From: Candidatus Amesbacteria bacterium | GTDB lineage: Bacteria > Patescibacteriota > Microgenomatia > CAZETR01 > Amesbacteraceae | Direction: 5' to 3' | Assembly (NCBI GenBank): GCA_027371535.1 | Contig: DAHXMV010000005.1 | Span: 1-55,437 of the forward strand | Length of the DNA stretch: 55,437 bases | In this document: piece after piece, positions 32,867 through 50,023 of the stretch | Numbering within the stretch: the stretch's first letter is position 1 | How the letters are laid out: each line of letters opens with the position of its first letter | Position numbers and translations under genes: made by a program | The notes under the pieces: model-generated | Database searches by the model: none | What the model was told of the DNA's origin: nothing | The model's input: only the letters and a program-made list of their open reading frames with translations

Positions 32867-32922
32867 CTATCTTGTTTATATTTGGTCTGACTCTTGTGTT
32901 AAAAGATAGAGGTAAAAATGGG

Positions 32923-33239: not shown

Positions 33240-34115
33240 CTATAGTTCAACAATTCGGGTAAGGGTGAGTTCGTCTTTTATTTCGAGATATTCAAGATAT
33301 TTTTGGGTGCTGGAGAGGCGCTTATGGCCGACGTGCTTGTGGATGACTTCCGGCTGAACTCCGTTCTTCAATTGGTGGGCGATAAAAGTGTGACGCAGGT
33401 CATTAACCTTAACGTCTTTCAAACCGGCCTTTTTGAAGTAGCGGTCAATGCTGGTCCTGATATTTCTGATTAATAGGGGGTGGCCGGTTTTGGTGACAAA
33501 CAGGTGGTCGTCTTTGACCTGGGGGCGGACGGCCAGGTAGTTGGAAACGGCGGTAGAGGCTGATTTGGAGACAGTGATAGTGCGGGCGGGGTTATTTTCT
33601 ATGGATCTGATAAACAACTCGTTTTTTTTGACGTCTTCGGTTCTCAGGTTGGCCAGTTCGGAAATGCGCATCCCGGTTTGGAGCAGGAGTTCAATGACGG
33701 CGCTGATCCGGATATCCAGACGGGAAACATCCCGTAAGGCTTTGTATTCATCAGGGGAAAGGATACGGGGCGGTTTGACTTCATATTTGGGGTGGGGAAG
33801 GTTTCTGGCCGGATTGTCGGTAACCATTTTTTCATCGCTTAAGTAGCGAAAGAAGGTTTTCAGGGAGTTGATCTTGCGGCTGATAGATTTGGCGGTGTAT
33901 TTTTGGGAGAAGAGGTGATTAACGTAATCCTGGAGATGCTCAGTCTGGATAGTAGTGGCCTGGGTAATCCGGCGGGTGGCCATATGATCCTTTAACTGCT
34001 CCAGGTCACTGGAATAGGCAATCCGGGTGGCCGAGGAACGGCTATGGGATTCCAGGTGTTTGAGAAACTTCTCCAGGGCGGTATCGAAGCTGACTGGTTC
34101 GGGTAAATCTTGCAT
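33240..34115 (-). CDS. Tyrosine recombinase, XerC/XerD family
   Basis: N-terminal SAM-like domain. GMRISEL, LRHTFIAH, HVGHKRLSSTQKY catalytic motifs. Confidence 0.85.
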   Translation of the reverse strand: MQDLPEPVSFDTALEKFLKHLESHSRSSATRIAYSSDLEQLKDHMATRRITQATTIQTEHLQDYVNHLFSQKYTAKSISRKINSLKTFFRYLSDEKMVTDNPARNLPHPKYEVKPPRILSPDEYKALRDVSRLDIRISAVIELLLQTGMRISELANLRTEDVKKNELFIRSIENNPARTITVSKSASTAVSNYLAVRPQVKDDHLFVTKTGHPLLIRNIRTSIDRYFKKAGLKDVKVNDLRHTFIAHQLKNGVQPEVIHKHVGHKRLSSTQKYLEYLEIKDELTLTRIVEL

Positions 34116-35975: not shown

Positions 35976-36047
35976 TGGCTACGACAGGATTCGGACCTGT
36001 GACCATGGCCTTATGAAGACCCCGCTCTACCACTGAGCTACGTAGCC
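35976..36047 (-). tRNA. tRNA with CAU anticodon (elongator Met or Ile2), 72 nt
   Basis: Hand fold. GGCTACG/CGTAGCC, D arm GCTC-AGTGGTA-GAGC, anticodon loop TTCATAA, T arm ACAGG-TCCGAAT-CCTGT, discriminator A. Confidence 0.8.
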
Positions 36048-36123
36048 GTGGATCAATTTTAGCAAAAAAACCCATTCCCGGCGGGATTTGAATTTAGCTG
36101 CAGGCACATTTTACAATTAAATA

Positions 36124-36857
36124 GTGAGCAAGAAAAAGGTAACTTTCATTTTAGGGATAATATTAATCTTTGGTTTTATTCTGATTATCCGGAAATACGG
36201 GCAGTAAGTGAAAAAGCCGTTTTACGATGCCGATACGGGCATGATTATTGTGATACCGACCTTTATGCCGACACTGACATTGACACCCAGGTTGAAGAAT
36301 TGGACTACTTATTCCGGCAAGATGAATGGGTGAATTTCAGTTTTAATTACCCGGCAAGCTTAAATTTGGTTCCGGTGAAGTATCCTCATCCGGAGGCGGA
36401 AGGAATGGCTTTGTTTCACAACACTCCAACCAAGAGGGAATATCCCCGTACCTGCGATATGGAGCCAACGGGGTTAAAAGTGGATTCGATACAAGATTTT
36501 GGCCTGGATTTATATTTGGTTTCCGGAAATTTACCGAATATTTATTTAAATTACTGGGGAGGGAATATTTATGACCCAAAACAGGCAATGGCAATCAGCT
36601 GGCCGGATAACAAACCTACTGGGTATAAATTGATAGATGAATACCAGGAGATGCTGCAAGGTTGTGCCAAAGACATGTATTTTATCCGGATGGGTCAGGA
36701 CAAAACACTGATCATTGAAAGAAATATTCAATTAAACAGACTGGCAAAGTGGTTACCGGAATTTGCCCGGGTACTATCACAGACTGATGTGATTACCGAT
36801 GCCGAAGCGGAAAATACATTTAACCGGGTGGTAACAAGTTTCCAGGTGATGAAGTAG
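36124..36857 (+). pseudogene. Disrupted member of the ILSTFKF-type secreted protein family
   Basis: GTG start plus signal anchor (VSKKKVTFILGIILIFGFILII), in-frame TAA at 36205-36207, then a frame change near 36310-36330 (NWTTYS in one frame, DEWVNFSFNYP in another). Ends with the family-like FNRVVTSFQVMK. Confidence 0.5.
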
Positions 36858-36902
36858 TTTTTTTTGGGAAGCCTGATTTAATTTGCGTATTTCTACAGCG
36901 AT

Positions 36903-37595
36903 TCAGGGAGCTTCTTCACGGCAAAAGAAGAAGGTTTGACTGATGAAGTTTTTCCAACCGGCATAGCTGATAAAACCGTCAAACATTCTGAGACCTCTTT
37001 TCAGGCCGGTAAATAAGCCCCATTTTTGGAATTTAGACCGGTTATGGATGGAAAACGGCATCCAGTAAACAATCTTGTGGTTTGTCTGCATATAGGTGTT
37101 GATGGCAACTTCAATGTCGTAACCGGAGATGTTATTTTTATAGACATTTTTCAAATCGATTCTCCTTAGTATTCTCTGACCGCTGTATATAATGTCATGC
37201 CTGATCCAATGACTCAGAACCACAGTTTTATCCTGTACCCGACGCATAATAATCATACCGATTTTTGGGTTTTGGTTTATTTTTTGGACAGCGTTTTCGA
37301 TTTCTTCAGGCTTAATATTATCCAGGTCTCCATCCAAGAGAAATATATAATGGGCTTTGGCTGTTTTAAGACCGGTTCTAACGGCTTCAGCTTTGCCTCT
37401 ATTCTTAACTAACCTGATAATGGTAATTTGGGGAAATTGAGATTTGAGCTGATGATAGGCGGATTGGTCATGTGAACCATCATCCACCACAATTATTCTG
37501 GAGAAACTTTTGACCCCGAGCACGGATTTGACTACACCAATAGGACGCAGACCTTCATCGAAATATGGGATTATGCAATCACAACTGCCACTCAC
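36903..37595 (-). CDS. Glycosyltransferase family 2
   Basis: VVDDGSHDQS and LLDGDLD motifs. Confidence 0.7.
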   Translation of the reverse strand: MSGSCDCIIPYFDEGLRPIGVVKSVLGVKSFSRIIVVDDGSHDQSAYHQLKSQFPQITIIRLVKNRGKAEAVRTGLKTAKAHYIFLLDGDLDNIKPEEIENAVQKINQNPKIGMIIMRRVQDKTVVLSHWIRHDIIYSGQRILRRIDLKNVYKNNISGYDIEVAINTYMQTNHKIVYWMPFSIHNRSKFQKWGLFTGLKRGLRMFDGFISYAGWKNFISQTFFFCREEAP

Positions 37596-37637
37596 TGACG
37601 AAATTATAAACTACAAGATATGAAAGTTATTTATTCA

Positions 37638-37665
37638 GTTGCTTTAATGAAATCAGAATTTCAGA
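37638..37665 (+). repeat. att-like repeat copy z (degenerate)
   Basis: GTTGC-5 nt-TGAAATCAGAA. Shares GTTGC and the 11-mer with copy e. Overlaps the GIY-YIG#1 3' end. Confidence 0.5.
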
Positions 37666-37898
37666 TGGAGGGTACTTATTTTCTTTTGCCGACTCCAACT
37701 TTTTATCTGAAATTCCCGTTTCAGGGCAGAGGATTTATCCGCAAGCTCTTCGGTATAGATAGGTTTTATAGGTTTATGAGAACGGGTATATGCACCACCC
37801 TTGCCATTTATGTGATCGAGAAAACGCTGTTTGGGATTGTTTGAACTGCCGGTATAAAAACTGCCATCTGAACAGAGGAGTAGATAAACAGAGTACAT
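37653..37898 (-). CDS. GIY-YIG nuclease family protein (81 aa)
   Basis: YSVYLLLCSDGSFYTGSS...R...H motif pattern. Confidence 0.8.
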   Translation of the reverse strand: MYSVYLLLCSDGSFYTGSSNNPKQRFLDHINGKGGAYTRSHKPIKPIYTEELADKSSALKREFQIKSWSRQKKISTLHLKF

Positions 37899-37986
37899 GA
37901 GATTATTATGCGCTTCGACTACGCTCAGGGCTGCGGATTTTGCCCTTCGACAAGCCCAGGGCTGCGAAAATGCTTCGCATTTTCTT

Positions 37987-38019
37987 GTTGCGGGGACTCC
38001 AGGAAATCAGAACCTGGTT
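37987..38019 (+). repeat. att-like repeat copy a
   Basis: GTTGCGGGGACTCCAGGAAATCAGAACCTGGTT. 32 of 33 identical to copy e. Confidence 0.8.
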
Positions 38020-38026
38020 CTTGGAC

Positions 38027-38278
38027 TCAAGGACTATCGGGGCCGCCTCTTTTAATACAATCCTGAACCAAACTTTCTGAAGCTGTTTGTAATTGTATAT
38101 CTTTTAACCCACTACCACCGGCTCCTAACATTGTACCTAAATTTTGAACATACCTTTTGCATTTAGACTCAACGGAATTAGAGTTAACGAGATAAATTAC
38201 TCCTATAATAACGGCCAAAATTGAGACAATAATCAGAAAGTATTTGTTCTTAAATAAATCGTCCCTAAGCACGTCCAT
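38027..38278 (-). CDS. Small single-TM protein
   Basis: One clear TM helix (YFLIIVSILAVIIGVIYLV). No recognised family. Confidence 0.4.
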   Translation of the reverse strand: MDVLRDDLFKNKYFLIIVSILAVIIGVIYLVNSNSVESKCKRYVQNLGTMLGAGGSGLKDIQLQTASESLVQDCIKRGGPDSP

Positions 38279-38393
38279 TTTTATTTTTTTCCGATTTCCA
38301 AATAAACCTCATATAAATCATGACAATTTAAGTATAACATATACAAGTGCACGATAAAAAAAAGACGGCATTCAAGGCGTATTTTTGATTTGC

Positions 38394-38420
38394 TGCGGGG
38401 ACTTCAGGAACTCCGAACCT
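38394..38420 (+). repeat. att-like repeat copy b (degenerate)
   Basis: TGCGGGGACTTCAGGAACTCCGAACCT. Three mismatches to copy a over the aligned part. Confidence 0.65.
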
Positions 38421-38504
38421 ATTAGCCTATAAAAACCCTTCCGTATAAACTGAATTTGTGATTAATCTGAGATGGTTGCATATAGTGGTTATAGATAATT
38501 TCGC

Positions 38505-38756
38505 TTGGAAAAGAAAATTAAATTTAGGTTAATTGGACTAGTTTTAGCTATTGCAATTATCCTGAGAAGTTTAATTTATGGCTTATCGGATATTGATCCT
38601 TTTTGGCGAATTCCAATACTAATAACCGAAGGTGGATGGGGGATAAAGTTAAGCCAAGGGCTTAGGGACTTTATGGTCTTGGTTGGGATTCAGTTTGTTG
38701 ATGTACAGTTGGGCGCGAGTTGGTGTGTAGTAGAACCTAAAAAATCCGCCTATTAA
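38505..38756 (+). CDS. Small membrane protein (TTG start)
   Basis: Two hydrophobic segments, followed by an intrinsic terminator. Confidence 0.35.
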   Translation: MEKKIKFRLIGLVLAIAIILRSLIYGLSDIDPFWRIPILITEGGWGIKLSQGLRDFMVLVGIQFVDVQLGASWCVVEPKKSAY

Positions 38757-38773
38757 AGCGGATTTATTTTGTT
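38742..38773 (+). terminator. Rho-independent terminator
   Basis: AAATCCGC-8 nt-GCGGATTT stem followed by a T-rich run. The stop codon lies in the loop. Confidence 0.6.
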
Positions 38774-38784
38774 TAATAACCTGT

Positions 38785-38810
38785 GTTGCGGGGGCCAAAA
38801 GAAATAAGAA
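38785..38810 (+). repeat. att-like repeat copy c (degenerate)
   Basis: GTTGCGGGG core plus GAAATAAGAA (9 of 10 to GAAATCAGAA). Confidence 0.55.
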
Positions 38811-38909
38811 ATTATTTCCTGTCATTAACCACGCCTATTTTTATTACGAATTTGTAGATATCTGAAGCGGGTTTATATTTGGAGTAAAAGGCGATAGAAT
38901 AGGCATATT

Positions 38910-39674
38910 ATGAAAATTGAGACCTTGCAGTGGAATATTGGGGGAGGAAAAATTAGGGAGCAAAGCAGTGACCCTGGGGCAGAAAGCTCTTATGTCCTGG
39001 ATGGTATGGGATACATGGCGGACTTAATTAAGAAGCTTTCTCCAGCCATTATTACCCTGGTTGAGACTCATGCGAATAATAAGACGGTTCAAGCTGAAGA
39101 AATTGCAAATGCATTGGGTTACGGGTATTGGGTCAACGATGTTTATGACCAGTCACACATTGAAGCGGGCATGGGTCTTGGGCAGGCAATAGTTTCCCGT
39201 TTTCCGATATCATCACATGACTTTAGTTTGTTTTATAACCCCAAATTTGAAACGGTCAGGCCTAACGGCGAAAAGTGGGTTTCTCACAATAAGGGTTTAA
39301 CGACTGGAATTTTGGATATGGAAGGTAAGGAGTTGGCGGTAATGACATTACATTTAATTCCCTTTAGGAAGTTTGGAGTTCCGCTGGATGACCAAAGGGT
39401 TGAATCGGCAAGAAAAAGTATAGTGGAGAAGATAAAAACTGATCCTGGCCACTTACTATTGCAGGGTGACTTTAATGTGGACGACCAAAGCTTGAAGGGT
39501 TTTTTGCCTGAGGTGATGGGTAAATGCCAGGAGGTTTTATCAGATAAACCTACAACTCCAAAAGGCAGAAGATATGATCATGTGGTTTACAAAGGCATGA
39601 TGCACATTAAGTCGGAAGTTATCGAGACCCTTACTGATCATTTTCCGGTTTATTCAGAATTTGAGGTAAATTAA
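38910..39674 (+). CDS. Endonuclease/exonuclease/phosphatase (EEP) family protein
   Basis: LQWNIGGG, LVETH and DHFPVYSEF motifs. Confidence 0.7.
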   Translation: MKIETLQWNIGGGKIREQSSDPGAESSYVLDGMGYMADLIKKLSPAIITLVETHANNKTVQAEEIANALGYGYWVNDVYDQSHIEAGMGLGQAIVSRFPISSHDFSLFYNPKFETVRPNGEKWVSHNKGLTTGILDMEGKELAVMTLHLIPFRKFGVPLDDQRVESARKSIVEKIKTDPGHLLLQGDFNVDDQSLKGFLPEVMGKCQEVLSDKPTTPKGRRYDHVVYKGMMHIKSEVIETLTDHFPVYSEFEVN

Positions 39675-39783
39675 ATATGGACGTGACCGTACCCCCTAAA
39701 CTGAACACGGTTTTTGTGTAATCCATTCAGTTTGGGGGAGGTGAATTCGCATTAAAAATCCAAGGAATAGCAATGGCGGACTG

Positions 39784-39995
39784 ATGGGCGACGAAGAATT
39801 TAAGGATAGAAAGTTAGCTTTAGAGAGGGAGCTTAAAGTAATAGAAAAGCAGCTGACGGGAATGGACGGGGAGATACTAAAAACTAATAATGATGCTCCG
39901 ATAACAGCTAAACGGGTTGCACCTGAAGAAAATGGCTTAGATATCACAAAAACGGCCGCTTTTTCAGCGGCCATTCCTACTCTGTTCCGGGGACT
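39784..39995 (+). pseudogene. C-terminal remnant of a large serine recombinase
   Basis: DEEFKDRKLALERELKVIEKQLTGMD aligns to DEKFREEKLEIETEVKSLENQLANTD of the intact recombinase (47820-49637). VAPEENGLDITKTAAFSAAIPTLFRG aligns to PAPENYALESTKMEAYWASIPTLLRG. There is no catalytic domain. Confidence 0.6.
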
Positions 39996-40007
39996 CCAGG
40001 AAATCAG
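39984..40007 (+). repeat. att-like repeat copy d
   Basis: GTTCCGGGGACTCCAGGAAATCAG. The preceding CCATTCCTACTCT matches the flank of the tRNA copy (CCATTCCTACTTT at 49518-49528). Confidence 0.75.
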
Positions 40008-40015
40008 TGGGGATA

Positions 40016-40297
40016 TCAGGCAAGCTTCGCTTGCTCCATCCCCACGGACTTCAGATAATTAGTGAGTTGTTTACGGATAACTCTCCTTCCCATACTTGTT
40101 TTCAGATATTTTTCCCTAGCTTCGGCGTCTTGCTTTAACAAATAGGCTTCGTAGTAAATAAGCTTAAAAGGTCTTCGGGGAGCAGTAGAGAAATTTTTTC
40201 CGTTATTGTGTTCTTGGATTCGACGTTTTAGGTCTGAAGTTGTGCCCGTGTAGAAATTATTATCTTTTTCAGATTGGAGAATATAAAGGTAGTGCAC
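40016..40297 (-). CDS. GIY-YIG nuclease family protein (93 aa)
   Basis: HYLYILQSEKDNNFYTGTTSDLKRRIQEHN pattern. Confidence 0.8.
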   Translation of the reverse strand: MHYLYILQSEKDNNFYTGTTSDLKRRIQEHNNGKNFSTAPRRPFKLIYYEAYLLKQDAEAREKYLKTSMGRRVIRKQLTNYLKSVGMEQAKLA

Positions 40298-40376
40298 TGG
40301 AAAAATTGTAGTACGTTGGGGGTATTATGTCTCGCTTCGCGATACACCACTCCCATGAGGCTGGAGCAAAAAGAGA

Positions 40377-40410
40377 ACAAAAAAATCCCGCCTTTGGCGG
40401 GACTCTTTTT
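40377..40410 (-). terminator. Hairpin with U-runs on both strands (bidirectional terminator candidate)
   Basis: TCCCGCC-TTT-GGCGGGA flanked by an A-run and a T-run. Downstream of the 40474-41620 minus-strand operon. Confidence 0.55.
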
Positions 40411-40424
40411 GCTTAATAGCCTCA

Positions 40425-40457
40425 GTTGCGGGGACTCCATGAAATCAGAACCTGGTT
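40425..40457 (+). repeat. att-like repeat copy e
   Basis: GTTGCGGGGACTCCATGAAATCAGAACCTGGTT. Confidence 0.8.
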
Positions 40458-40473
40458 TTTCAATCAAGTGGCC

Positions 40474-40929
40474 TTAGCCCCAGTGAAATTTGCCTAAAGT
40501 AAGAAGTATATTAACTACCACGATAACTCCCAAATCGACTACTTGTATCCCCCAATGATGCGCTGCTGAGTATTTTCTAATTTGCCCCTTCCAAACTGGC
40601 CATAAAAAAGGCGTGGCCAAATCAGTATGCAAAAAGGCGTCTTGAATCACGTGCCAGAAATATCCTAACCCTAAGATTCCCAGTTTCGGAGAAAATGTAC
40701 CAAGAACAATTGTCACTGCAACCGCCACCCACCAGTTATGCAGAAACCAATATGTCCTAAGCATCCAAAGTGGTGACTTAACCAACTCATTTTTGAGTCC
40801 ATATTTCGAGACGGCAAGCAGGGGCACACTTACTATATCCGGAATCGAAGCTACAACTGCCCCCTCAATGGGTAAACCTACTGTTCTCCCAATAGTAGTT
40901 CCCCAAAGAAGATGGTTTGCGGTATTCAT
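40474..40929 (-). CDS. Polytopic membrane protein, possibly a YdjM/DUF457-like metal-dependent hydrolase
   Basis: Four to five hydrophobic segments with conserved-looking His (HNWW, HVIQDAFLH). Weak assignment. Confidence 0.35.
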   Translation of the reverse strand: MNTANHLLWGTTIGRTVGLPIEGAVVASIPDIVSVPLLAVSKYGLKNELVKSPLWMLRTYWFLHNWWVAVAVTIVLGTFSPKLGILGLGYFWHVIQDAFLHTDLATPFLWPVWKGQIRKYSAAHHWGIQVVDLGVIVVVNILLTLGKFHWG

Positions 40930-40964
40930 AAAATTGAGTATAAATCGTTCGCCTCACGGAATTA

Positions 40965-41279
40965 TTACCCACCATAACCCTTTTTAGCTCTGGGGTTTAT
41001 GTAAATAAATCTACCAACGCCTTTCAGGCCGGGTTCTGACACCTCGTGATGTACTATGAAGCCAAGCCCCATTGAAATTGCTACCACAGAAAGCCTCGAT
41101 GACTTTGACAAAGCAATTACGCCTATGAGTATCAAGAGTACCCCGTAGGTGCTGTGATGAATATGAAAGTGGCCTTTCTTCAAATCCGGTACAGGTAAAC
41201 GAAATAGTTTTTGAAAATAAAATAGCACTGGGAATGATTCCAAACCAACTAAAAAAGCTAATATTGCAATCACCATCAT
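40965..41279 (-). CDS. Small His-rich membrane protein
   Basis: Three hydrophobic segments; HFHIHHSTYG and IVHHE motifs. Confidence 0.4.
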   Translation of the reverse strand: MMVIAILAFLVGLESFPVLFYFQKLFRLPVPDLKKGHFHIHHSTYGVLLILIGVIALSKSSRLSVVAISMGLGFIVHHEVSEPGLKGVGRFIYINPRAKKGYGG

Positions 41280-41620
41280 TAGTTCAGAGTTTCCCCTTTA
41301 ACTATTTTTTTAACTACTGCTCCTACAAATAACCTAAATGCTAACCTTTTTTCCTTCTCATAAATCATCGGGGTTCCCAGAAGTTCCTTACAAGCTGGGC
41401 AAGTAAATTTAGGTACTTCAGAAAACGTCTTATGCTCCAACTCTTGATAACTTGACCCGACTATACGATCTAGGTACATCCGCTTTAGTATTCCAGGGCC
41501 ATCTTTTTGGTAATAACATATATGGTTTGCGCACTTAGAGCAAGTTATATCAAGGAATCTCGAGGCTCCCCTTGCTCTACTAAAACTGTCCTTTTTGAAA
41601 GTCATCTTAGCTTTTCCCAT
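41279..41620 (-). CDS. Zinc-ribbon protein (CxxC...CxxC)
   Basis: SRFLDITCSKCANH ... FTCPACKELLG. The first knuckle resembles ribosomal S27e-type ribbons, but about 40 aa are inserted between the knuckles. Confidence 0.45.
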   Translation of the reverse strand: MGKAKMTFKKDSFSRARGASRFLDITCSKCANHICYYQKDGPGILKRMYLDRIVGSSYQELEHKTFSEVPKFTCPACKELLGTPMIYEKEKRLAFRLFVGAVVKKIVKGETLN

Positions 41621-41664
41621 TATTTCAATTTTACCAATTCCTCCGAACAGTATACAATCGGCTG

Positions 41665-42168
41665 GTGGAAAAAGTCACAACTTTGGATGGTTCTGCAAAA
41701 TTCTCTCGACGGTCACAAAAGCTGGGCAAAACAGTCGGTTTGGTGGTTGGAAGTTTTGACATCATTCATTTGGGTCACATCAACCTCTTCCGTCTGGCAA
41801 AAAGACATTCAGATGTGGTTATTGTTGGCTTAGACAACGATCAAACAATCAAACTTGTTAAAGGACAAAATCGACCTATTAACGACTTCAAACGCCGCAG
41901 TCAAATTCTTGCTGACTTAATTACCATAGACAAGATATTTTTGATTGACAAAACTTCATACCACGGTAGCGAGGAAGCACTTGATTCATACAGATTGCTA
42001 ATTGAAAAAATCAGTCCTACCCATATTTTTACCCACAAGATTTGTGATAGGCACTGGCAAGACAAGAAAAAAATCGCTCTGGAAAAAGGAATAACCTTTG
42101 TTCTGGATAGCAGTCCGAAGATAACTAGTTCTGGATCAATTCTGGAAAAGATACTGGGCGAAAATTAG
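41665..42168 (+). CDS. Cytidylyltransferase-fold nucleotidyltransferase (HxGH class; RfaE-II/TagD-like)
   Basis: GSFDIIHLGHINLF (HxGH). Size 167 aa. Confidence 0.7.
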   Translation: MEKVTTLDGSAKFSRRSQKLGKTVGLVVGSFDIIHLGHINLFRLAKRHSDVVIVGLDNDQTIKLVKGQNRPINDFKRRSQILADLITIDKIFLIDKTSYHGSEEALDSYRLLIEKISPTHIFTHKICDRHWQDKKKIALEKGITFVLDSSPKITSSGSILEKILGEN

Positions 42169-42257
42169 TACATACCTAGATTAAGCTCCGGAGCGGAACA
42201 AAATATAACCGTAGAGCATCATCGATTTTGTGGGTAAAAATGCTAAAATGTCGTGAA

Positions 42258-42941
42258 ATGACAATTTGTATTGCGGCTCTTGCTGAAAATGGATCCAAAC
42301 TGGTTATTGCGGCGGATCAGATGATAACGGCTAACATACCAATTTCTTACGAGTTTGAAACTGACGACGTACAGAAGATTTATAACATCACTGATAAATG
42401 TTACGTGCTCACGGCGGGAAACGCCTTGTTTGCCTGTGAGATTGTAAAATCTGCAAAAATGAAAATTGACGCGATTCAGGGAAACCACACCGTCCAGTCG
42501 ATTGCGGATATTGTCAGGCAAGAGTTTGTTAAATTCCGTAATACCGTTATCACCAGGAACGTGCTGGAACCTAGAGGTATAACATTGGCAGATTATTACA
42601 AAGTTCAACAGCAACTCGTTCCGGGAGTAATACAGGAAATTGAAAACGCCTTGGTAAACTCAAACATCGGCGTTGAATTGATTGTTGCTGGTCAGAACGA
42701 TGGTGGCGATTGCCATATTTTTACAATAACCCACCCGGGGCAGTTGTTAAGCCATGATGCAATTGGACACGTAAGTGTGGGAAGCGGTGCTCCGCATGCG
42801 ACCTATTATCTGATAGGTTCCACCTACAAAAAATCTCTTAGTGTAGGCCAGGTGAGAAGAATGGTTTTGAATGCAAAGAAGAAAAGTGAAGTAGCTCCCG
42901 GAGTTGGAAAAGCTACCACCGACAAAGTAATAGGTGCATAA
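42258..42941 (+). CDS. Proteasome beta-subunit/HslV-like Ntn hydrolase
   Basis: MTICIAALAENGSKLVIAADQMIT (Thr right after Met, Asp about 18 residues later), QKIYNITDKCYVLTAG (Lys33 context), VSVGSGAPHA (GSG loop). The track ORF starts at 42228, which would add a 10-aa propeptide. Confidence 0.6.
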   Translation: MTICIAALAENGSKLVIAADQMITANIPISYEFETDDVQKIYNITDKCYVLTAGNALFACEIVKSAKMKIDAIQGNHTVQSIADIVRQEFVKFRNTVITRNVLEPRGITLADYYKVQQQLVPGVIQEIENALVNSNIGVELIVAGQNDGGDCHIFTITHPGQLLSHDAIGHVSVGSGAPHATYYLIGSTYKKSLSVGQVRRMVLNAKKKSEVAPGVGKATTDKVIGA

Positions 42942-42949
42942 TACTAAGC

Positions 42950-43141
42950 ATGATGCTCGCAGACTATAATAACCAAAATCAAACTTTCAATTTTGCCAAG
43001 TCAGATTTTGAGGCTTACAAGAGATGGGGTTTGTATGCTGGTGTGAACTTGCCCAAAAAAACCAGTACAGTTCCTGAAGCTAATAAGGATAGCGAGAAGA
43101 AAAATCAGAACGTTGTAGATAAACTGACGCTAGAAAAGTAA
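42950..43141 (+). CDS. 63-aa hypothetical protein
   Basis: Starts 8 nt after the proteasome-like gene stop. No recognised family. Confidence 0.35.
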   Translation: MMLADYNNQNQTFNFAKSDFEAYKRWGLYAGVNLPKKTSTVPEANKDSEKKNQNVVDKLTLEK

Positions 43142-43276
43142 GAAGCAATAGAAAACAACCTTGAACCTAATACAATAACCTGAACAACTGTGAAACCTGA
43201 CCGAGGTTGATCTTAGTGTCTTGCACCAAATACCTTGTCCAAGTTTGGACTTTATTATCTCTAGATGAGCAAGTCT

Positions 43277-43807
43277 TTATTGGACCACTTCGCACTGGCT
43301 GAGGTCAATGACACCTATGGTTTGTGCTCCGACAACGCCCCGGACGGTAATGGTCTGGCCATTTTTGAGTGGCATGAGCTGGCTCTTATCCTTTATCTGA
43401 CAGCTAATTTGAGTCATTGAGAACTGTTTGGATGCAACATCAGTAAAGGAAATTCCGGAATCCGTAATGTTGGATACTGTGGCGGAAAACTCAACCAGTT
43501 TGTCCTTCCATTTACTTTCGGCGGCAACTTGGTTGGCATCAAAGTCATCTGCTAGCTCCTTGGCTGTAATTTTTTGAGCCGAAGCTGGTGTAGGAGAGGC
43601 AGAAGCCTGTTGGTTAGCCTGTGTAGCGCTGCTAGAGCCACCTTTATTACCCCCGATAGCTGAACCTACCATAGCTAATAGGACCAGAATCAGAATCCCG
43701 GTAATAATCGGGTGGCGGGCAAACCAATTCCGTTGGTCTGCTTGGCAGTGCGGGCATTTCTTGGCTTTGGCGTCAATCTCGGTCTGACAACTTTTACATT
43801 TCTTCAT
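43277..43807 (-). CDS. Zinc-ribbon, TM and OB-fold (tRNA_anti-like) protein
   Basis: CKSCQ...CPHCQ, a TM helix, a Ser/Ala/Gln linker, then ELADDFDANQVAAESKWKDKLVEF, typical of OB-fold 'tRNA_anti-like' domains (from memory). Confidence 0.5.
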   Translation of the reverse strand: MKKCKSCQTEIDAKAKKCPHCQADQRNWFARHPIITGILILVLLAMVGSAIGGNKGGSSSATQANQQASASPTPASAQKITAKELADDFDANQVAAESKWKDKLVEFSATVSNITDSGISFTDVASKQFSMTQISCQIKDKSQLMPLKNGQTITVRGVVGAQTIGVIDLSQCEVVQ

Positions 43808-43933
43808 TCAATTTCACCTCCGATCTTCCCTGTAGGGTTATTTCCATAACTAGGCTAATTATAGACATTAATTCTGTAAAGTACACACTCTGGAGTTGCG
43901 GTAAATGGGGCGTAACTAGCCGAGAATCAGGTT

Positions 43934-44149
43934 ATGCTGTCAAAACAACAACTTCTGAAAAAACTGGGTGAAAGAATTCGGTATGCCAGAATGGACGCCG
44001 GATTAAAATCTCAAGAGGCGTTGTCCGATAAGACGGGACTGCACCGGAACTACATCGGTAAGCTGGAACGGGGTTTGAGTAATCCGCCGGTTTATACTCT
44101 GTACCGGATCTCTGCGGCTTTGGGAAGGAAAGATCTGTTGGATTTTTAA
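43934..44149 (+). CDS. XRE-family helix-turn-helix regulator
   Basis: LGERIRYARMDAGLKSQEALSDKTGLHRNYIGKLERG. Confidence 0.8.
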   Translation: MLSKQQLLKKLGERIRYARMDAGLKSQEALSDKTGLHRNYIGKLERGLSNPPVYTLYRISAALGRKDLLDF

Positions 44150-44602
44150 TCGTGGATTAAGGCTAATTATTGTTAAGTAGCAACGCCCCGGGCGAAGTGT
44201 GGTTACCATAATGGTAAGGGAATTGTGTTGTGAGGATAACAACGAAAAGATTTAGTTACGGGGATAGGGGGTACAATAGTCATATTTTTGATGACAAATT
44301 TATCTTGGTCAGCCTCAAATAGGGTTAAAAAGGGTATGGTAACTCTCAAAAAGAGACAGTGTTTTGCTAAAAAACAGAGCTTTTTGATGAAATCTGAAGC
44401 TGGATTAAGTCTAAATTTGGTATTTTAACCGCCGCATTTAGTACTGTTTTTGGATCATCGTGAGCTTTGATAGGCTACCCCCCAGGGTTAGGAATCCGGG
44501 GTGCCTCCGACGGGAAGAATACGGTAGGCACCTTTAAAATACGCCGGAAAAAATTCGAAAATTGATAGGTGGTCCTAAAGTGGTAGACTTTTTACGATAA
44601 GT

Positions 44603-45349
44603 ATGAATATAAAAACAACATCGGCATATTTGCCGTTCTACGACCAAAATAAACAGCTAACACAGGAAGAGAATAGCTTTGTTACTCTCTTGGCCGAGGA
44701 TAAGGAGTTCGAAAATACGGTCGTTCAGCTTAGAAAAGTTTATGGCATTCCAAAAGAAGGATACCCAGACATAAATATGCATGGCAATCCGGACAGTGAA
44801 ATCGATAGGTTATTCAAAGAATCCCGCCGCGTTTATGACCATGAACCTAAACCTGAACAACTCAAGTTAGCCGGGATAAAAGATGACCTCGGACTTCTAT
44901 ATCGCGATGCAGAATCAATCTGCCGTGAATATGGTTTAACCCCGAGCTGGAAAACTCCCTTGGCTACATTCATAACTTTCGGCGTGCTCCCCGTCCCCTC
45001 CAAACCTTATCCTATTGCCGTCTACCCCCGAAGGGGTACTCACAGGTGGTATGCAGAGACCTCGGATAGTATTTTAATTGCAATTGAGCAACCCATATCC
45101 AAGGCGCAATTTAAAAAGTGGATCGATGCCAACTGGGAGAGTCTTAAACCTGAAATTAATAGCCTACCTAAACATCCTCGTTCCCAAGTCAGGAATCTAA
45201 AAGTCTACCAACGTATCGCACAGCTGGAGAACCAAAAACTTTCATTGAAAGAAATTGCCGGAAAATTATATTCGGAAGGGTTAATTAATCTCTACGATTC
45301 TGGAGTGGGAACTTACGCCAAACGAGGAAAGGCAATTCTTAAAAAGTGA
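44603..45349 (+). CDS. Hypothetical protein with a possible C-terminal HTH
   Basis: No recognised family. LSLKEIAGKL near the C-terminus. Confidence 0.45.
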   Translation: MNIKTTSAYLPFYDQNKQLTQEENSFVTLLAEDKEFENTVVQLRKVYGIPKEGYPDINMHGNPDSEIDRLFKESRRVYDHEPKPEQLKLAGIKDDLGLLYRDAESICREYGLTPSWKTPLATFITFGVLPVPSKPYPIAVYPRRGTHRWYAETSDSILIAIEQPISKAQFKKWIDANWESLKPEINSLPKHPRSQVRNLKVYQRIAQLENQKLSLKEIAGKLYSEGLINLYDSGVGTYAKRGKAILKK

Positions 45350-45464
45350 CTGATACGATAAAATTCCATCAATAAGGGATAAAACACTTCTTTGAACATC
45401 CTCATGTGGAATACTTCTAGACTCTTCTGAGCTATCCTCGGTCTAATTAAAACTAAATATTAAT

Positions 45465-45725
45465 ATGAGCCGAAACAACAATCAGCTGTTCGAAACCCAA
45501 GATTTCAACCTGTCTTGTTTCCTGCTGGCAAGTGAAATTCATCTCCTCAGTTTAAAACCCACAAACGACCCCCGCAAAGTTATTTTTGTCTTTGAGAAAC
45601 ACCCATCCCTAGAGCAACTAGTACAGGGATTCTGGTCAAACTCACAAAGAATCGAGCCCCTCAAACTTCTAAATGCACAGCGAGTGCTTAAACAACGTTT
45701 ACATTCCTATCTCCTATTCAAATAA
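45465..45725 (+). CDS. DUF5659-like small protein
   Basis: FETQDFNLSCFLLASEIHLLSL...VIFVFEK pattern (from memory). Confidence 0.45.
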   Translation: MSRNNNQLFETQDFNLSCFLLASEIHLLSLKPTNDPRKVIFVFEKHPSLEQLVQGFWSNSQRIEPLKLLNAQRVLKQRLHSYLLFK

Positions 45726-45736
45726 ATGACAATACT

Positions 45737-47359
45737 ATGAATAAGTCATCTGACCAATATACCAATCACGAATTAGGGGATGTATATTTCGCCCAACACA
45801 CAATCTCGACCGAGTTTGCTGTTCAACAGGGAATAACTTGGGACGAAAAAGAAGTGCACATCCCTGTTAGGGATGAAGAAGGTAATGTAATTTTTTCGAA
45901 ACACCGAAACCTTCACTTCACTCCCCACGATACCAACTCCCCACCTAAATACCGCTACGATGCGGGTTCCAAAGCCGCCCTGTTTAATTTCCACGCAGTC
46001 AAGGCGAAGGCCTACATTGTCATCTCGGAGGGTGAGGTGGATTGCCTGAAATTAAGTCAGGAAGACATACCCTCCGTGTCTTCTACCGGCGGAGCTAACA
46101 CTTTCCTGCCTGAGTGGGCTGAACTACTGAAAGACAAGTCGGTGTTTATCTGCCTGGATAACGACAAAGCTGGCCGGGATGGCACAGCCAAAATCACCGC
46201 TTTGCTTCCCGACGCCAAAATAGTCCAATTACCAGAAAACAACAAGGATATTTGTGAATATTTCGCAGATAACCACTCAAAAGAGGATTTCATTGCTTTA
46301 CTTCAAGAGGCTCTGACAATCCCTGAATGGTTACAAAAAAATGAACCGCCGGATTTCAAATGGGTCAGTGCTGAAGAACTAGTCGCCAAAGAGTTTCCGG
46401 AGGAACAGTGGCTGATCGACAAAATCCTATATATGGAAGGCTTTTGTTTTATTTACGGCGCCGAAGGTGTGGGGAAAAGTTTTATCACCTTATCCATGGC
46501 TCAGGCAATAGCTACGGGAACGCCTTGGCTAGGACACTTTCGGGTTCCCCGACCCGGTAGGGTGTTGTTTATCGATAAGGAGAATCCTCTACCTATTCTG
46601 GCAAAGCGCCTGAATGGCATGAAAATTACCGGCGAAAACATTTTCTGGTTGGAACGACCTGAACTCCTAGCTCTCGTCAATATCAAGGGCGAGCTCACTG
46701 ACTTTTTCAAATCGTTATCTCAAAAAGTCCAGAACGAAAAGATCGACCTGATTATTGTCGACTCCTTTGTTGACTTAATGGTTGGTTCCGAAAATTCAGC
46801 AGAAGATACCCAAGGTTTTTTCGAAACTATGCGGACAAACTTCCCGCATAAAACTATTCTACTTATCCACCATGAGAGTAAACCGATACAGGGAGCTTTC
46901 CGAACTGACGCCCAACGCACCCGGGGTTCCACCAATATCAACGCTCAAGCAATTACCCAATTCCGGCTTGAGTCGGTAGCTAAGTCCAAGACAGATCTTA
47001 CTCTCAAGCAAACCAAAGCCCGGAATAGCGAGAAGTTGGATAAGTTCGTGATGAAAATGGTAGTGGAGCAGATTGATGAAAACAATTCTCAAATCACCGG
47101 TTTTGAATATTTAGGTGAAGTGGTAGGAGATGAATCTAAATTTGAGGAAACTAAGCAAATGATACTTGACTTATTTGCCGATAAAATAGTTGTCTCAAGA
47201 GTGGAAGTTGACCAACATTGCGAAGCTAACAATATATCCCCGAGAACTATCGCATCTGTTATTAAAGAAATGATAGATAAAAAAGAACTTTTGGAGTTTC
47301 CGAATGAACAAGATAGAAGAAAAAGAGATTATTCACTCCCAGACAATGAAGAGTCCTAA
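45737..47359 (+). CDS. Toprim-domain primase fused to a RepA/AAA_25-like ATPase
   Basis: EGEVDCLKL and LDNDKAGRDG (Toprim). Walker A GAEGVGKSF, Walker B LIIVDSF. Confidence 0.75.
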   Translation: MNKSSDQYTNHELGDVYFAQHTISTEFAVQQGITWDEKEVHIPVRDEEGNVIFSKHRNLHFTPHDTNSPPKYRYDAGSKAALFNFHAVKAKAYIVISEGEVDCLKLSQEDIPSVSSTGGANTFLPEWAELLKDKSVFICLDNDKAGRDGTAKITALLPDAKIVQLPENNKDICEYFADNHSKEDFIALLQEALTIPEWLQKNEPPDFKWVSAEELVAKEFPEEQWLIDKILYMEGFCFIYGAEGVGKSFITLSMAQAIATGTPWLGHFRVPRPGRVLFIDKENPLPILAKRLNGMKITGENIFWLERPELLALVNIKGELTDFFKSLSQKVQNEKIDLIIVDSFVDLMVGSENSAEDTQGFFETMRTNFPHKTILLIHHESKPIQGAFRTDAQRTRGSTNINAQAITQFRLESVAKSKTDLTLKQTKARNSEKLDKFVMKMVVEQIDENNSQITGFEYLGEVVGDESKFEETKQMILDLFADKIVVSRVEVDQHCEANNISPRTIASVIKEMIDKKELLEFPNEQDRRKRDYSLPDNEES

Positions 47360-47407
47360 CAATCCAACAATATGCAAGTCAACCCACCTCATGCAAAAGA
47401 ATACCTG

Positions 47408-47428
47408 CAAATATGCAAAGCATATTTG
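47408..47428. repeat. Perfect 9-bp inverted repeat CAAATATGC-AAA-GCATATTTG within an ATGCAA-rich tract
   Basis: Read directly. ATGCAA hexamers at 47372, 47391 and 47413. Confidence 0.7.
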
Positions 47429-47540
47429 AATGTATTCTGCATGCATCTATTTTTCAGTAAAACCATACCTACATATTTTAATCCTGGTTCGACATTGATT
47501 GAACTTGACGGAAAGGGGCGGCTGATAGCTGCTTACCGGC

Positions 47541-47699
47541 ATGATAAATAATGAGGCAGATATTGAAGAGTTTCGGAGGTTATATTTTCAAGTGTTTGGC
47601 TTGGAAATTGACTTCCAAACGGCGGCAGAATTGGCAAACCGGTTGATAAGTATTGTTAGGATAGTTTACTTCCCGGACTTGAAAGCTAAAAATGATTGA
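47541..47699 (+). CDS. 52-aa hypothetical ORF (below the ORF-track cutoff)
   Basis: MINNEADIEEFRRLYFQVFGLEIDFQTAAELANRLISIVRIVYFPDLKAKND. No family recognised. Confidence 0.25.
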   Translation: MINNEADIEEFRRLYFQVFGLEIDFQTAAELANRLISIVRIVYFPDLKAKND

Positions 47700-47730
47700 C
47701 ATTCGTAGCCAAAGTGCAAGAATTATAGGT

Positions 47731-47795
47731 GAGCTCAATTTTACCCTTCGGCTTTTTAGTGGCCGTCTCAGTCAAATCCGAAGGGGTTTGAGCTC
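47731..47795 (+). promoter_or_regulatory. Long imperfect hairpin upstream of the serine recombinase gene
   Basis: GAGCTCAATTTTACCCTTCGG ... CCGAAGGGGTTTGAGCTC. Ends 24 nt before ATG 47820. Confidence 0.5.
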
Positions 47796-47819
47796 AAACT
47801 GGGGCGGCCGCTTGAATTT

Positions 47820-49637
47820 ATGAATCAATTTCCAGACCAGTCTCAATTGAAATGTATTGGTTATGCTCGGAAATCGTCTGAGGACAACAAGGAGCGCCAA
47901 GCTGCTAGCCTACCGGAGCAACTTTACATACTTGAGGGGATGAAATCTCGCCTTAAACTTCGGATTGTGGGAATATTGGAAGAATCAAAATCAGCTCACC
48001 AAAAAGGTAGGGAGGTTTTTGAATCAATGTTGGCTAGAGTTGAAGCGGGTGGCGCGAATGCTATCGTAACCTGGCATCCAAATCGTCTGGCTCGAAATAT
48101 GACTGACGGCGGAAGAATTATTGATCTAATGGACTCAGGGAAGCTAATTGAGGTGATAACGCCTTCTAGGGCTTATCTCAACACTCCGGAGGATAAATTT
48201 ATGCTGACTCTGGAGTTTGGATTATCTAAAAAGGACTCTGACGATAAAGCAATCGTTGTAACCAGGGGTTTGGAGAAGAAGTGCCGGGATGGTTGGCGGC
48301 CGGGGGTAGCACCACAAGGCTACCTGAACGACAAAGCGACGGAAAGTGGTTTCCGGCAGGTACTGAAGGACCCGGAAAGGTTTGAGCAGGTTAAAAAGCT
48401 GCTACTCATGTTTTTAGAAGGCGAATCCGTAAATAATTTGCATAGGATAGCTAAAGACGAGTGGGGTTATCGGACAAACCAAAAGAAACGTTCCGGCGGT
48501 GTACCCTTATCTATTTCTATGATTTACAAAATGTTGACAAACCCATTTTACTGTAAAAAATTTGAGTATCCGGAGGGCAGTGGTATTTGGTATCCGGGAA
48601 AACATGAGGCAATGATCACGGAAGATCAATTCAAACAAATTCAGGTGCGGTTGGGGAAGAGAGGTAAATACACATTACAAAACCATGAGTACTCCTTTAC
48701 ATCACTTATAAAGTGTGGCGAATGTAATTCGGTTATCACTGCCGAACAAAAACACCAGGCAATCTGTACAAAATGCAGATACAAATTTTCTCTGACCAAG
48801 AAAAATAAGGACCACTGCACCAAATGCGGAACTAGGATAGAGGAGATGAAGAAACCGACTATTTTGGACTATACATATTACCGCTGCACCAGAAGTCAAC
48901 GCCCCGGGTGCATGCAGAAGGGGCTGAGGCTAGATAAATTGGAAGAGCAGGTAGATTACGAGCTGAGCCAAGTGGAAATCCACCCTCTGTTTGCTCAATG
49001 GGCGTTAAAGCAAATTGAAAAGATGAATCAGGATGAAATCAAGTTGAGAGAAGACAACATCAATAACATTAAAAGGGCTCATGATGCAGCAAGAGCCAAA
49101 CTGGACAACTTGTTACATCTTAAAATCTCTCCGGCTAATTCGGATGGGAGTTTACTGTCGGATGAGAAATTTAGGGAGGAGAAACTAGAGATAGAGACAG
49201 AGGTTAAGAGTTTGGAGAATCAGCTGGCTAATACTGACCAGAGAATGTTGCAGGTGGCTCATGACATTAACGAGACCTTTGAGTTTGCGACGCTGGCCCA
49301 GCAGCGGTTTGCCGCGGCGGATTTAAAGACCAAACGAAAAATGGCCATGGACCTCGGGACGCACCTAATTTTGAAGGACAAAAAAGTCCTGTTTGATAAT
49401 CCATTTCCGATTTTCAAACTTAAAGAGATCAAAAAGGAAGTTCCGTCAGTTGCAATTACACCCGCACCTGAAAATTATGCCTTAGAATCAACAAAAATGG
49501 AGGCTTATTGGGCCTCCATTCCTACTTTGTTGCGGGGCCGGGAATCGCACCCGGTCTGGAAGATTATGAGCCTTCCGTGCGGCTTTACACTACCCCGCAT
49601 ATCAAGGAACCTATTTATTATAACATCGGAATATTAG
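47820..49637 (+). CDS. Large serine recombinase
   Basis: IGYARKSSEDNKERQAASLPEQ catalytic region, recombinase domain, Cys-rich zinc ribbon (CGECNS...CTKCG...YYRC), coiled coil. The last ~36 codons are antisense to a tRNA, so the true stop/tail is uncertain. Confidence 0.85.
   Translation: MNQFPDQSQLKCIGYARKSSEDNKERQAASLPEQLYILEGMKSRLKLRIVGILEESKSAHQKGREVFESMLARVEAGGANAIVTWHPNRLARNMTDGGRIIDLMDSGKLIEVITPSRAYLNTPEDKFMLTLEFGLSKKDSDDKAIVVTRGLEKKCRDGWRPGVAPQGYLNDKATESGFRQVLKDPERFEQVKKLLLMFLEGESVNNLHRIAKDEWGYRTNQKKRSGGVPLSISMIYKMLTNPFYCKKFEYPEGSGIWYPGKHEAMITEDQFKQIQVRLGKRGKYTLQNHEYSFTSLIKCGECNSVITAEQKHQAICTKCRYKFSLTKKNKDHCTKCGTRIEEMKKPTILDYTYYRCTRSQRPGCMQKGLRLDKLEEQVDYELSQVEIHPLFAQWALKQIEKMNQDEIKLREDNINNIKRAHDAARAKLDNLLHLKISPANSDGSLLSDEKFREEKLEIETEVKSLENQLANTDQRMLQVAHDINETFEFATLAQQRFAAADLKTKRKMAMDLGTHLILKDKKVLFDNPFPIFKLKEIKKEVPSVAITPAPENYALESTKMEAYWASIPTLLRGRESHPVWKIMSLPCGFTLPRISRNLFIITSEY
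49530..49599 (-). tRNA. Atypical tRNA-like gene, CAU anticodon, initiator-like acceptor stem
   Basis: Hand fold. TGCGGGG/CCCCGCA, TA, D arm GTGT-AAAGCC-GCAC (no GG), anticodon arm GAAGG-CTCATAA-TCTTC, variable loop CAGA, T arm CCGGG-TGCGATT-CCCGG, discriminator A, then CAA rather than CCA. Confidence 0.5.
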
Positions 49638-49678
49638 TATTGGCTTTCGGAAGTGATATACTGAATATCGGCTGAAAT

Positions 49679-50023
49679 ATGTTTAAGACGCTGACAGATT
49701 TGGGAATGAAAAGGACAGGGAAGCAGGCTTTGGGATTCTATCTGGCTTATCTGCTGCTGTTTATGGTGGTAGGGGGGCTTCTGGGGGGCGTAGCAGGACT
49801 TTCCGGGGTGAATTCGGGGAGCGGGGGGTTTGATACGGGAATGAGGCTGGGGGTGACAGTTTCGGTAATTTTGAGCCTGGGGCTGTCAATTCTGATCCTC
49901 AGGGCTAAAAAGAAACAAAACAGTTTCGGATTGATCCTGATAGCGTTGCTCTCCGGGTTGTTGGCAATCTTAGGCGGCGGACTCTTAGGACTCATACCGG
50001 TAGCGTTTCTGACTACGAAATAG
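49679..50023 (+). CDS. Gly-rich polytopic membrane protein
   Basis: Three to four hydrophobic segments. No recognised family. Confidence 0.45.
   Translation: MFKTLTDLGMKRTGKQALGFYLAYLLLFMVVGGLLGGVAGLSGVNSGSGGFDTGMRLGVTVSVILSLGLSILILRAKKKQNSFGLILIALLSGLLAILGGGLLGLIPVAFLTTK

Follow-up and report, generated by a model that had tools for sequence, protein, structure and literature searches.

A run of three genes on a mobile element of a Candidatus Amesbacteria genome raises the question of what a proteasome-like protease is doing on mobile DNA and which of its neighbours belongs to it. The genes were analysed within a 55,437-nt stretch of contig DAHXMV010000005.1, referred to here as the window. 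A first-pass annotation had proposed that a nucleotidyltransferase, a protease with the catalytic layout of proteasome beta/HslV subunits and an open reading frame (ORF) of 63 amino acids (aa) constitute one undescribed system. All three ORFs were found as it described them, at 41665–42168, 42228/42258–42941 and 42950–43141, each on the + strand. The analysis points to a smaller unit, formed by the protease and the 63-aa ORF (orf63), whose main features are located as follows.

42258–42941, + strand: Thr-protease of the proteasome fold, short form, 227 aa (Pfam, AlphaFold2, Foldseek, family profile, residue conservation)
42261–42263, + strand: Thr2 of the protease, catalytic residue
42315–42317, + strand: Asp20 of the protease, catalytic residue
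42375–42377, + strand: Lys40 of the protease, catalytic residue
42417–42419, + strand: oxyanion Gly54 of the protease, part of the catalytic set
42780–42788, + strand: Gly-Ser-Gly 175–177 of the protease, the Gly-x-Gly loop
42885–42908, + strand: SEVAPGVG 210–217 of the protease, invariant C-terminal motif (residue conservation)
42950–43141, + strand: small partner protein orf63, 63 aa, type A, beginning 8 nt past the protease stop
42992–43030, + strand: helix of orf63, residues 15–27, carrying the conserved motif F-x-A-Y-[KR]-[RK]-W-G

The protease and its catalytic set

The 237-aa form of the protease ORF matched the Pfam family Proteasome (PF00227) with 31.8 bits, against a gathering cutoff of 22.4. 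An AlphaFold2 model built from 27 homologues reached a pLDDT of 84.4 and a pTM of 0.82, and its comparison with the Protein Data Bank (PDB) by Foldseek yielded 1,215 matches at E ≤ 0.001. All 50 of the matches listed were 20S proteasome subunits (TMq 0.55–0.67), the best being 20S beta subunits (E about 3e-11, TM 0.64–0.67).

When PDB sequences were searched with the protease as a single sequence, only weak Vps4 matches were obtained; these were judged spurious, and a profile search was therefore needed. The family profile ranked the beta subunit of Thermoplasma acidophilum first (2.6e-5) and an archaeal alpha subunit second, and no HslV, Anbu or BPH chain was present among the 60 matches listed. 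Both archaeal beta and archaeal alpha models or chains were matched by the family. By AlphaFold2, Foldseek and Pfam alike, the protein has the alpha-beta-beta-alpha fold of proteasome subunits, and the predicted structure thus fell where the first-pass annotation had expected it.

Residue conservation was evaluated in 77 full-length relatives, with identities down to about 24%. Asp20 and Lys40 were invariant (77/77), Gly54 was conserved in 75/77, and the Gly-x-Gly loop was retained with Gly175 in 77/77 and Gly177 in 76/77. Thr2 was likewise present in 77/77, a count that is partly forced by the analyst's choice of start codon. The Thr, Asp and Lys that had been picked out beforehand as catalytic are therefore the conserved ones. 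Judged by alignment, the full proteasome catalytic set is intact in the protease, comprising the Thr, the equivalents of Asp17, Lys33 and Gly47, and the Gly-Ser-Gly loop.

The ORF is open from 42228 as well as from 42258, giving 237 or 227 aa, and both starts had initially been considered. Among independently called database homologues aligned with the window protein, 25 of 26 begin Met-Thr; counting the window protein from ATG 42258, the figure is 26 of 27. The true start is therefore ATG 42258, without a propeptide, and the alternative, a TTG at 42228 preceding a 10-aa propeptide, was ruled out by the same homologues. With a Met-Thr start, the nucleophile would become free once the initiator Met is cleaved off, and no propeptide would be needed.

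Compared with canonical beta subunits, the model contains two additional helices after H2, within residues 110–134 (120–129 and 132–144 in the numbering of the 237-aa form), and its H3–H4 loop is short. In the profile alignment, AKKRSEVAPGVG of the protease is paired with 'AKQRDSASGG' of the T. acidophilum beta subunit, so that SEVAPGVG falls on the proteasome segment 'RDSASGG', the Asp166/Ser169/Gly170 loop supporting the 20S active site.

A small partner and the division into short and long forms

Relatives were collected in a first set of 79 loci, 77 of them from one-genome-per-species contigs and 2 from viral contigs, and more loci were added later from metagenomes and assemblies. A metagenome scan with the single protease protein returned 3 loci only, and an exhaustive profile search returned 440 protease clusters (50% identity, E ≤ 1e-30).

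A coupled small ORF, defined as one of 40–115 aa on the same strand with its start between −40 and +30 nt relative to the stop codon, was found behind 58 of 68 protease genes, compared with 40 of 149 control neighbour genes (odds ratio 15.8, p = 3e-16). Three sequence types of partner were distinguished: type B in 28 non-redundant loci, type A, to which orf63 belongs, in 7, and type C in 2. Type B carries the motif K-W-L-E-A-E-R-E-L-A..., type A the motif F-E-A-Y-K-R-W-G. For type B, the distances between partners correlated with those between their proteases (Mantel r = 0.78, p ≤ 0.0002), the partner evolving faster, with a mean core identity of 30% versus 52% for the protease. The ratio of nonsynonymous to synonymous substitution rates (dN/dS) of the small ORFs was 0.11–0.35 in the eight pairs in which dS could be estimated, which indicates that they are translated genes. 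It was evident that the small ORF is under purifying selection and co-diverges with the protease, in agreement with the earlier proposal that the two belong together.

In the AlphaFold2 model of orf63 (mean pLDDT 57.8), a single helix was predicted, at residues 15–27, which coincides exactly with the conserved motif. Outside it the model is of low confidence and includes a Lys/Glu/Asn-rich tail; this remainder is probably disordered.

Type A is rare, as an alignment search retrieved only 11 proteins among 5.8 billion. The motif lies downstream of the protease gene in loci L083, L084/85, L082/L091, L001/L089, L004, L080/L090 and L093, and on informative contigs type-A proteins adjoin a protease gene or its remnant, with one exception, L092. 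At this locus a lone type-A ORF (1281–1469) stands behind genes for a protein of 116 aa that includes a hydrophobic stretch and for a CBM96 protein, and it was regarded as a decay product. The small ORF at L094 (3–173), preceded by a protease remnant (MTICIAALAEKEKK, then a stop), was also regarded as a decay product of the module.

The protease family itself is divided by length. Most of the 440 clusters are 260–300 aa long, and these long forms extend at least 49 residues beyond the APGVG motif, with a strand, a helix bearing a conserved aromatic residue and a low-complexity tail. Conserved partners accompanied 37 of the 45 short forms and not one of the 24 long forms (p = 5e-12). Neighbour-joining placed the short forms in a single clade nested among long forms, with the sole exception of L062, where the gene stops no more than about 25 bp before its contig does. 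This clade splits in two, with types A and C in one branch and type B in the other. In size, partners resemble the tails of long forms, and they are alike in composition too: disorder-promoting residues account for 57% of partners and 63% of tails, compared with 47% of protease cores.

Simple gene fission as a proven event was considered and set aside, as the sequences gave no support for it. Homology between tail and partner was not found by hhalign, and the idea that the partner is a detached tail was therefore treated as a hypothesis backed by distribution and single origin.

Some loci depart from these categories. The long form at L047, from a Saccharibacteria metagenome-assembled genome (MAG), is followed by an overlapping small ORF (2948–3163) with a type-B-like motif, 'DYLEAANR'; it belongs to the sister group of the short-form clade and may be intermediate between fused and split architectures. 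Beside other long forms, coupled downstream ORFs share an ending '...SPLG...' in three actinobacterial MAGs (L051, L055, L060) and '...GPPPGRDxLVK' in L053 and L073. BLAST clustering left both sets ungrouped, and further partner types may exist beside long forms.

Mobile carriage and the proposed role

In the Acidobacteriota MAG CBDCBX01, an IS1-family insertion sequence (IS) element of 2305 bp (L028, 5557–7861) has three passenger ORFs, namely the protease, its partner and an ORF of 73 aa. Its inverted repeats are 20 nt long, and the 7-bp target duplications at three insertion sites all differ from one another. At least five copies were found (L028, L029, L054, L043, L058): three are intact and 99.96–100% identical, a fourth ends at the contig end, and in the fifth the protease gene is split by another IS insertion. 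The 73-aa passenger has the motif GGxARAxxLxxERRxEIAxxAAxxRW and belongs to a cluster with a median length of 79 aa.

Type-A relatives adjoin a tyrosine integrase, NinG together with IS1595, IS1595, or a phage replication-organiser gene (Phage_rep_org_N), and the island that harbours another also contains HNH, Fic, an NmeDI-type restriction enzyme, Vsr and a methylase. The nearest large neighbours at all loci represented 125 Pfam families among 149 genes, headed by IS1 and IS1595 transposases, DNA methylases and Mrr nucleases. The protease/partner pair is mobile-element cargo, and truncated or disrupted protease copies were found in about 11 of 88 loci. The loci are spread patchily over more than 20 bacterial phyla, Methanosarcinales and Thermoprotei, and all genome matches of the protease except one are MAGs.

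One archaeal label is doubtful. Contig NJBH01000039.1 (L089, the same as L001), assigned to 'Promethearchaeota archaeon Loki_b32', encodes a penicillin-binding transpeptidase, a Mur ligase and FemAB; a bacterial origin is thus probable, the contig probably being one of Candidate Phyla Radiation (CPR) type binned into an Asgard MAG.

The pair in the window is carried by an element of about 9 kb that encodes a serine recombinase and is inserted at a tRNA-Met gene; the GC skew collapses across the same interval. The mobile-island location given by the first-pass annotation was borne out by this recombinase, the tRNA boundary and the relic repeats. The element also encodes a DUF5659 protein, and its other features are the following.

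41665–42168, + strand: nucleotidyltransferase of the cytidylyltransferase fold (HxGH, RfaE-domain-II-like), 167 aa (Pfam, NCBIfam, PHROG)
43237–43250, + strand: terminator-like hairpin and T-run downstream of orf63, facing the convergent gene (consensus scan only)
43277–43807, − strand: convergent 176-aa neighbour with an N-terminal Zn-ribbon and an OB fold (tRNA_anti-like; Pfam PF12869, 3.5e-16)
43934–44149, + strand: Xre-type helix-turn-helix (HTH) protein, repressor-like (Pfam HTH_3, 8e-12)
45737–47359, + strand: primase-helicase with Toprim and AAA_25 domains
47820–49637, + strand: large serine recombinase, 605 aa (Pfam Resolvase, Recombinase, Zn_ribbon_recom)
40425–40460, + strand: likely left boundary; of the five relic copies of 36 nt this one lies innermost, with 94% identity to the copy at 37987 taken as reference
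49530–49599, − strand: tRNA-Met, right boundary and attachment site (ARAGORN; Rfam tRNA, 48.3 bits)

The other 36-nt relics, degenerate copies resembling the 3' end of the tRNA-Met, lie at 37987, 38392, 38785 and 39984, and a 74-nt repeat (39919–39992 and 49464–49537, 76% identical) runs into the tRNA. Both kinds of repeat look like relic attachment sites stacked by successive integrations. Two tRNA-Met genes had been considered as the duplicated attachment site and proved to be different genes. A GIY-YIG gene (40016–40297, − strand) lies between two relic copies, the recombinase ORF extends across the oppositely oriented tRNA-Met gene, and a 92-aa ORF (39784–40062) resembles the C-terminal end of the recombinase, suggesting a remnant of an earlier element's enzyme.

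The 176-aa neighbour, which also matched PHROG 8545 ('superinfection exclusion Sie-like', 6.2e-15), stands between the protease pair and the HTH gene and converges on orf63; its hydrophobic stretch was read as a putative membrane segment. No structured RNA besides the tRNA was found in the element. The Rfam scan of window positions 36000–50000 at gathering thresholds gave no match, its fast filters having evidently lost the tRNA, which reached its score, against a gathering score of 29, in a 500-nt stretch searched in 'evalue' mode. Upstream of the island, at 32796–32867 and 33240–34115, a tRNA-Ile gene (anticodon UAU) adjoins a tyrosine recombinase gene and a DUF5658 gene and may mark a second integration hotspot.

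The unit proposed here is a two-gene cassette, formed by the peptidase (42258–42941) and a translationally coupled partner (42950–43141). The partner would bind the peptidase and do in trans what the tail of the long forms does in cis: its helix and tail may dock on the peptidase and control assembly, substrate access or activity, replacing an ATPase cap. Precedents are the C-terminal helix (H5) of Anbu, which stabilises assembly (PMC5666114, as summarised in PMC8665760), and the C-terminal helix predicted in some proteins of the PHI subfamily of proteasome homologues (PMC8665760). To judge from its contexts, the cassette would work for the mobile DNA that carries it, and its likeliest function would be that of a conflict or maintenance module: the fast-evolving partner would restrain the protease until infection or loss of the element releases it. 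The defence or protein-modification role suggested by the first-pass annotation was likewise drawn from context. For the composite of cassette, tail in trans and conflict or maintenance role, confidence is about evenly balanced, the structural statements being much more certain and the biological role less so.

A bolder version is put forward tentatively and is distinctly less probable than the composite: the pair may be an unrecognised mobile two-component proteolytic conflict system, in which an ATP-independent protease is silenced by a co-translated, disordered mini-subunit, a detached counterpart of the tail of the long forms, and, when this partner is lost or titrated, for instance during phage infection or element loss, is freed to kill or arrest the cell or to destroy invader proteins.

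When the proposal is weighed, a number of observations count against it. Partner types A and B showed no homology by hhalign (probability 0.1%), and the type-B hidden Markov model fails to reach orf63. The same method found no homology between long-form tails and partners (probabilities 0.1% and 0.4%), so that the tail-in-trans hypothesis draws on complementary distribution, single origin and similar composition, the origin being read from a neighbour-joining tree with a midpoint root and no support values. The short forms L002, L003, L086 and L005, which make up one lineage, lack a partner, and the long form at L047 may have one. Many family members lie in ordinary chromosomal surroundings, and the neighbour census has no genome-wide baseline. 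Neither the protease nor orf63 had a tblastn match in 50,697 phage or 72,556 plasmid records or a specific family match in PHROGs, PADLOC or NCBIfam, and the PADLOC-DB 2.0 models matched none of the protease, orf63, the nucleotidyltransferase and two neighbours. A conflict or maintenance role would, finally, be assigned by analogy and guilt by association.

Other explanations were considered alongside. In the model of the first-pass annotation, nucleotide transfer (for instance AMPylation or a nucleotide signal) is coupled to proteolysis and all three genes act as one system. The arrangement in the window agrees with this: the genes lie on one strand with gaps of 89 nt (to ATG 42258) and 8 nt, a promoter-like site precedes the first gene, and the consensus scan found no terminator-like site between the nucleotidyltransferase and protease genes or anywhere until past orf63. 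The 167-aa protein keeps its HxGH motif and was identified by Pfam CTP_transf_like (1.4e-10), PHROG 7878 and, as the nearest NCBIfam model, RfaE domain II (1.2e-19, far under that model's cutoff). Its distribution speaks otherwise, since in none of the 79 related loci did tblastn place it 6 kb or less from the protease gene, and it was absent from the gene tables of loci fetched later, including that of the closest relative (71% identity), where an unrelated 236-aa gene of unknown family lies upstream of the protease. In other close relatives this place is taken by NinG, HNH, DUF1189 or Phage_rep_org_N, and the only other loci where nucleotidyltransferase and protease occur together are L087 and L088, both copies of the element in the window. 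A conserved three-gene system was therefore rejected, and the coupled mechanism is very improbable; of the expected co-occurrence, the protease/small-ORF pair held and the trio did not. The nucleotidyltransferase is local cargo of the same element, possibly co-transcribed with the protease. Control of the element itself, in the manner of ImmA/ImmR of ICEBs1, would have the protease cleave an Xre-type repressor or another element protein and so switch the element on. The window pair does lie about 0.8 kb from the HTH_3 repressor-like gene, in the same regulatory region, but no more than 5 of the 79 loci have a window-like Xre-type HTH close to the protease gene, and the IS-borne and chromosomal copies have no such partner, which makes this reading improbable. 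Maturation of phage heads by a prohead protease is scarcely credible: although in four loci of Phototrophicaceae and Aggregatilineales (L008, L027, L031, L067) the gene immediately preceding the pair is a Phage_portal gene (E about 1e-64), the portals of L008 and L031 are orphans. Their neighbours are housekeeping genes or a methylase-Mrr fusion, and no capsid, scaffold, terminase or other head gene follows them. The roughly 80 other loci have no portal, the phage genomes and PHROGs gave no match, and this role was rejected since the portals examined in detail are such orphans.

Two further alternatives concern the pair rather than its carrier. In one, the partner is a dedicated substrate, whose helix motif is recognised by a connectase-like specific peptidase or transpeptidase that cleaves or ligates it and releases the variable tail. 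Such a reading would fit the short, recognition-like conserved motif followed by a hypervariable tail, and a proteasome homologue acting as a specific ligase has a precedent in connectase, a monomeric enzyme whose target is MtrA (PMC7980362, as summarised in PMC8665760); ring formation might also be hindered by the helical insertion after H2, as discussed for PHI (PMC8665760). Against it, the partner tails are of low complexity without recurring core-peptide features, the neighbour census revealed no linked modification or export genes, and the insertion is not at the S3/S4 site used by connectase. As an equivalent tail is fused to the enzyme in long forms, a subunit fits better than a substrate, and the substrate reading is rather unlikely. 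The remaining alternative is a housekeeping peptidase, self-compartmentalising and ATP-independent, that clears unfolded proteins and has its mobile neighbours by chance. Roles of this kind were suggested for orphan homologues by Fuchs et al. (PMC8665760), and many loci do lie among genes for RNase HII, tRNA synthetases and HisG. The patchy, almost exclusively MAG-derived occurrence, IS carriage with multiple copies per genome, frequent pseudogenes, recurrent integrase, transposase and restriction-modification neighbours, and a fast-evolving dedicated partner render it unlikely, slightly more so than the substrate reading.

The two-gene cassette nevertheless provides an orphan branch of the proteasome family with its first conserved partner and genomic context: in more than 20 phyla, CPR bacteria among them, it is cargo of IS, of integrative elements and of islands of defence type. 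The split and fused architectures predict where the partner binds, and with two small genes the role of orphan proteasome homologues becomes testable.

Comparison with known proteasome homologues

As the first-pass annotation had noted, the partners are unlike those of HslV, Anbu or the 20S proteasome. No HslU unfoldase of the AAA+ class, ATP-grasp or alpha-subunit gene is present near the protease in the window, and the 25 families that recur most among the 149 nearest large neighbours include no AAA+ unfoldase, ATP-grasp or second proteasome gene; no second proteasome-family gene was found near the protease.

The archaeal 20S beta subunit (T. acidophilum, 1pma_B) is the best match in both sequence and structure and has the same catalytic residues. 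The spacing differs, being Thr1/Asp17/Lys33 in the archaeal subunit and Thr1/Asp19/Lys39 in the protease. In contrast to the 20S system, with its paired alpha gene and its beta propeptide that is removed on assembly, the protease has no alpha subunit, propeptide or unfoldase, possesses two extra helices after H2, and has its gene on mobile DNA beside that of a 63-aa partner.

HslV (ClpQ) is, like the protease, a bacterial catalytic subunit encoded by a single gene, and it too starts Met-Thr without a propeptide. It is about 175 aa long with an adjacent hslU gene encoding the AAA+ partner, whereas the protease, at 227 aa, is about 50 residues longer and has no HslU nearby. Anbu is a proteasome homologue without an ATPase, as is the protease. 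Its operon partners are ATP-grasp and transglutaminase-like genes. Neither occurs among the listed neighbour families of the protease, and transglutaminase-like genes were absent from the 25 most frequent of these families and from the window.

Beyond HslV, Anbu, BPH and connectase, proteasome homologues have been catalogued yet are functionally blank. Fuchs, Alva and Lupas (2021) listed 22 new homologues, for which neither genomic context nor co-occurrence suggestive of function was found (PMC8665760). Among them, the PHI subfamily has a helical insertion after H1/H2 and tight links to alpha and beta subunits, and it is spread over Proteobacteria, Firmicutes, PVC and other bacteria, Euryarchaeota, Crenarchaeota and other archaea (PMC8665760, Table 1). 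The protease family agrees with PHI in the proteasome fold with Thr, Asp and Lys, in having no propeptide and no AAA+ partner, in a long helical insertion after H1/H2 with no other insertions in the AlphaFold2 model, in closeness to archaeal alpha and beta subunits, in scattered distribution and in a C-terminal helix in some members. PMI-3 and PMI-4 share the insertion after H2 and differ by a second, H3–H4 insertion that the protease does not have.

The protease thus probably belongs to the catalogued and uncharacterised PHI subfamily, having been matched by description rather than to the representative WP_012956871.1. No named or RefSeq member occurred among the protease-family matches, the archaeal-seeded search included, and cluster look-ups gave metagenomic singletons. 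The word 'undescribed' in the first-pass annotation was therefore probably too strong for the protease family. What differs from PHI as described, for which no context was reported, and what appears to be new for this orphan branch, is the dedicated, co-evolving small partner, the short/long (split/fused) dichotomy and the lifestyle as mobile cargo.

These properties invite comparison with reverse-order type II toxin-antitoxin and abortive-infection pairs. By analogy, such pairs are cassettes of two translationally coupled genes, the second being small, rapidly evolving and in part disordered, as here, and they are patchy, horizontally spread, carried on IS and integrative elements and in restriction-modification islands, and often decayed, as here. 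To our knowledge, no toxin-antitoxin or defence family is built on a proteasome-fold protease; the literature search likewise returned no such system built on a proteasome homologue and no functional follow-up of the orphan families. If the conflict reading were true, the pair would represent the first system of toxin-antitoxin or abortive-infection type on the proteasome fold and the first function for any orphan proteasome homologue, and with them a new enzymatic principle for bacterial immunity or addiction modules.

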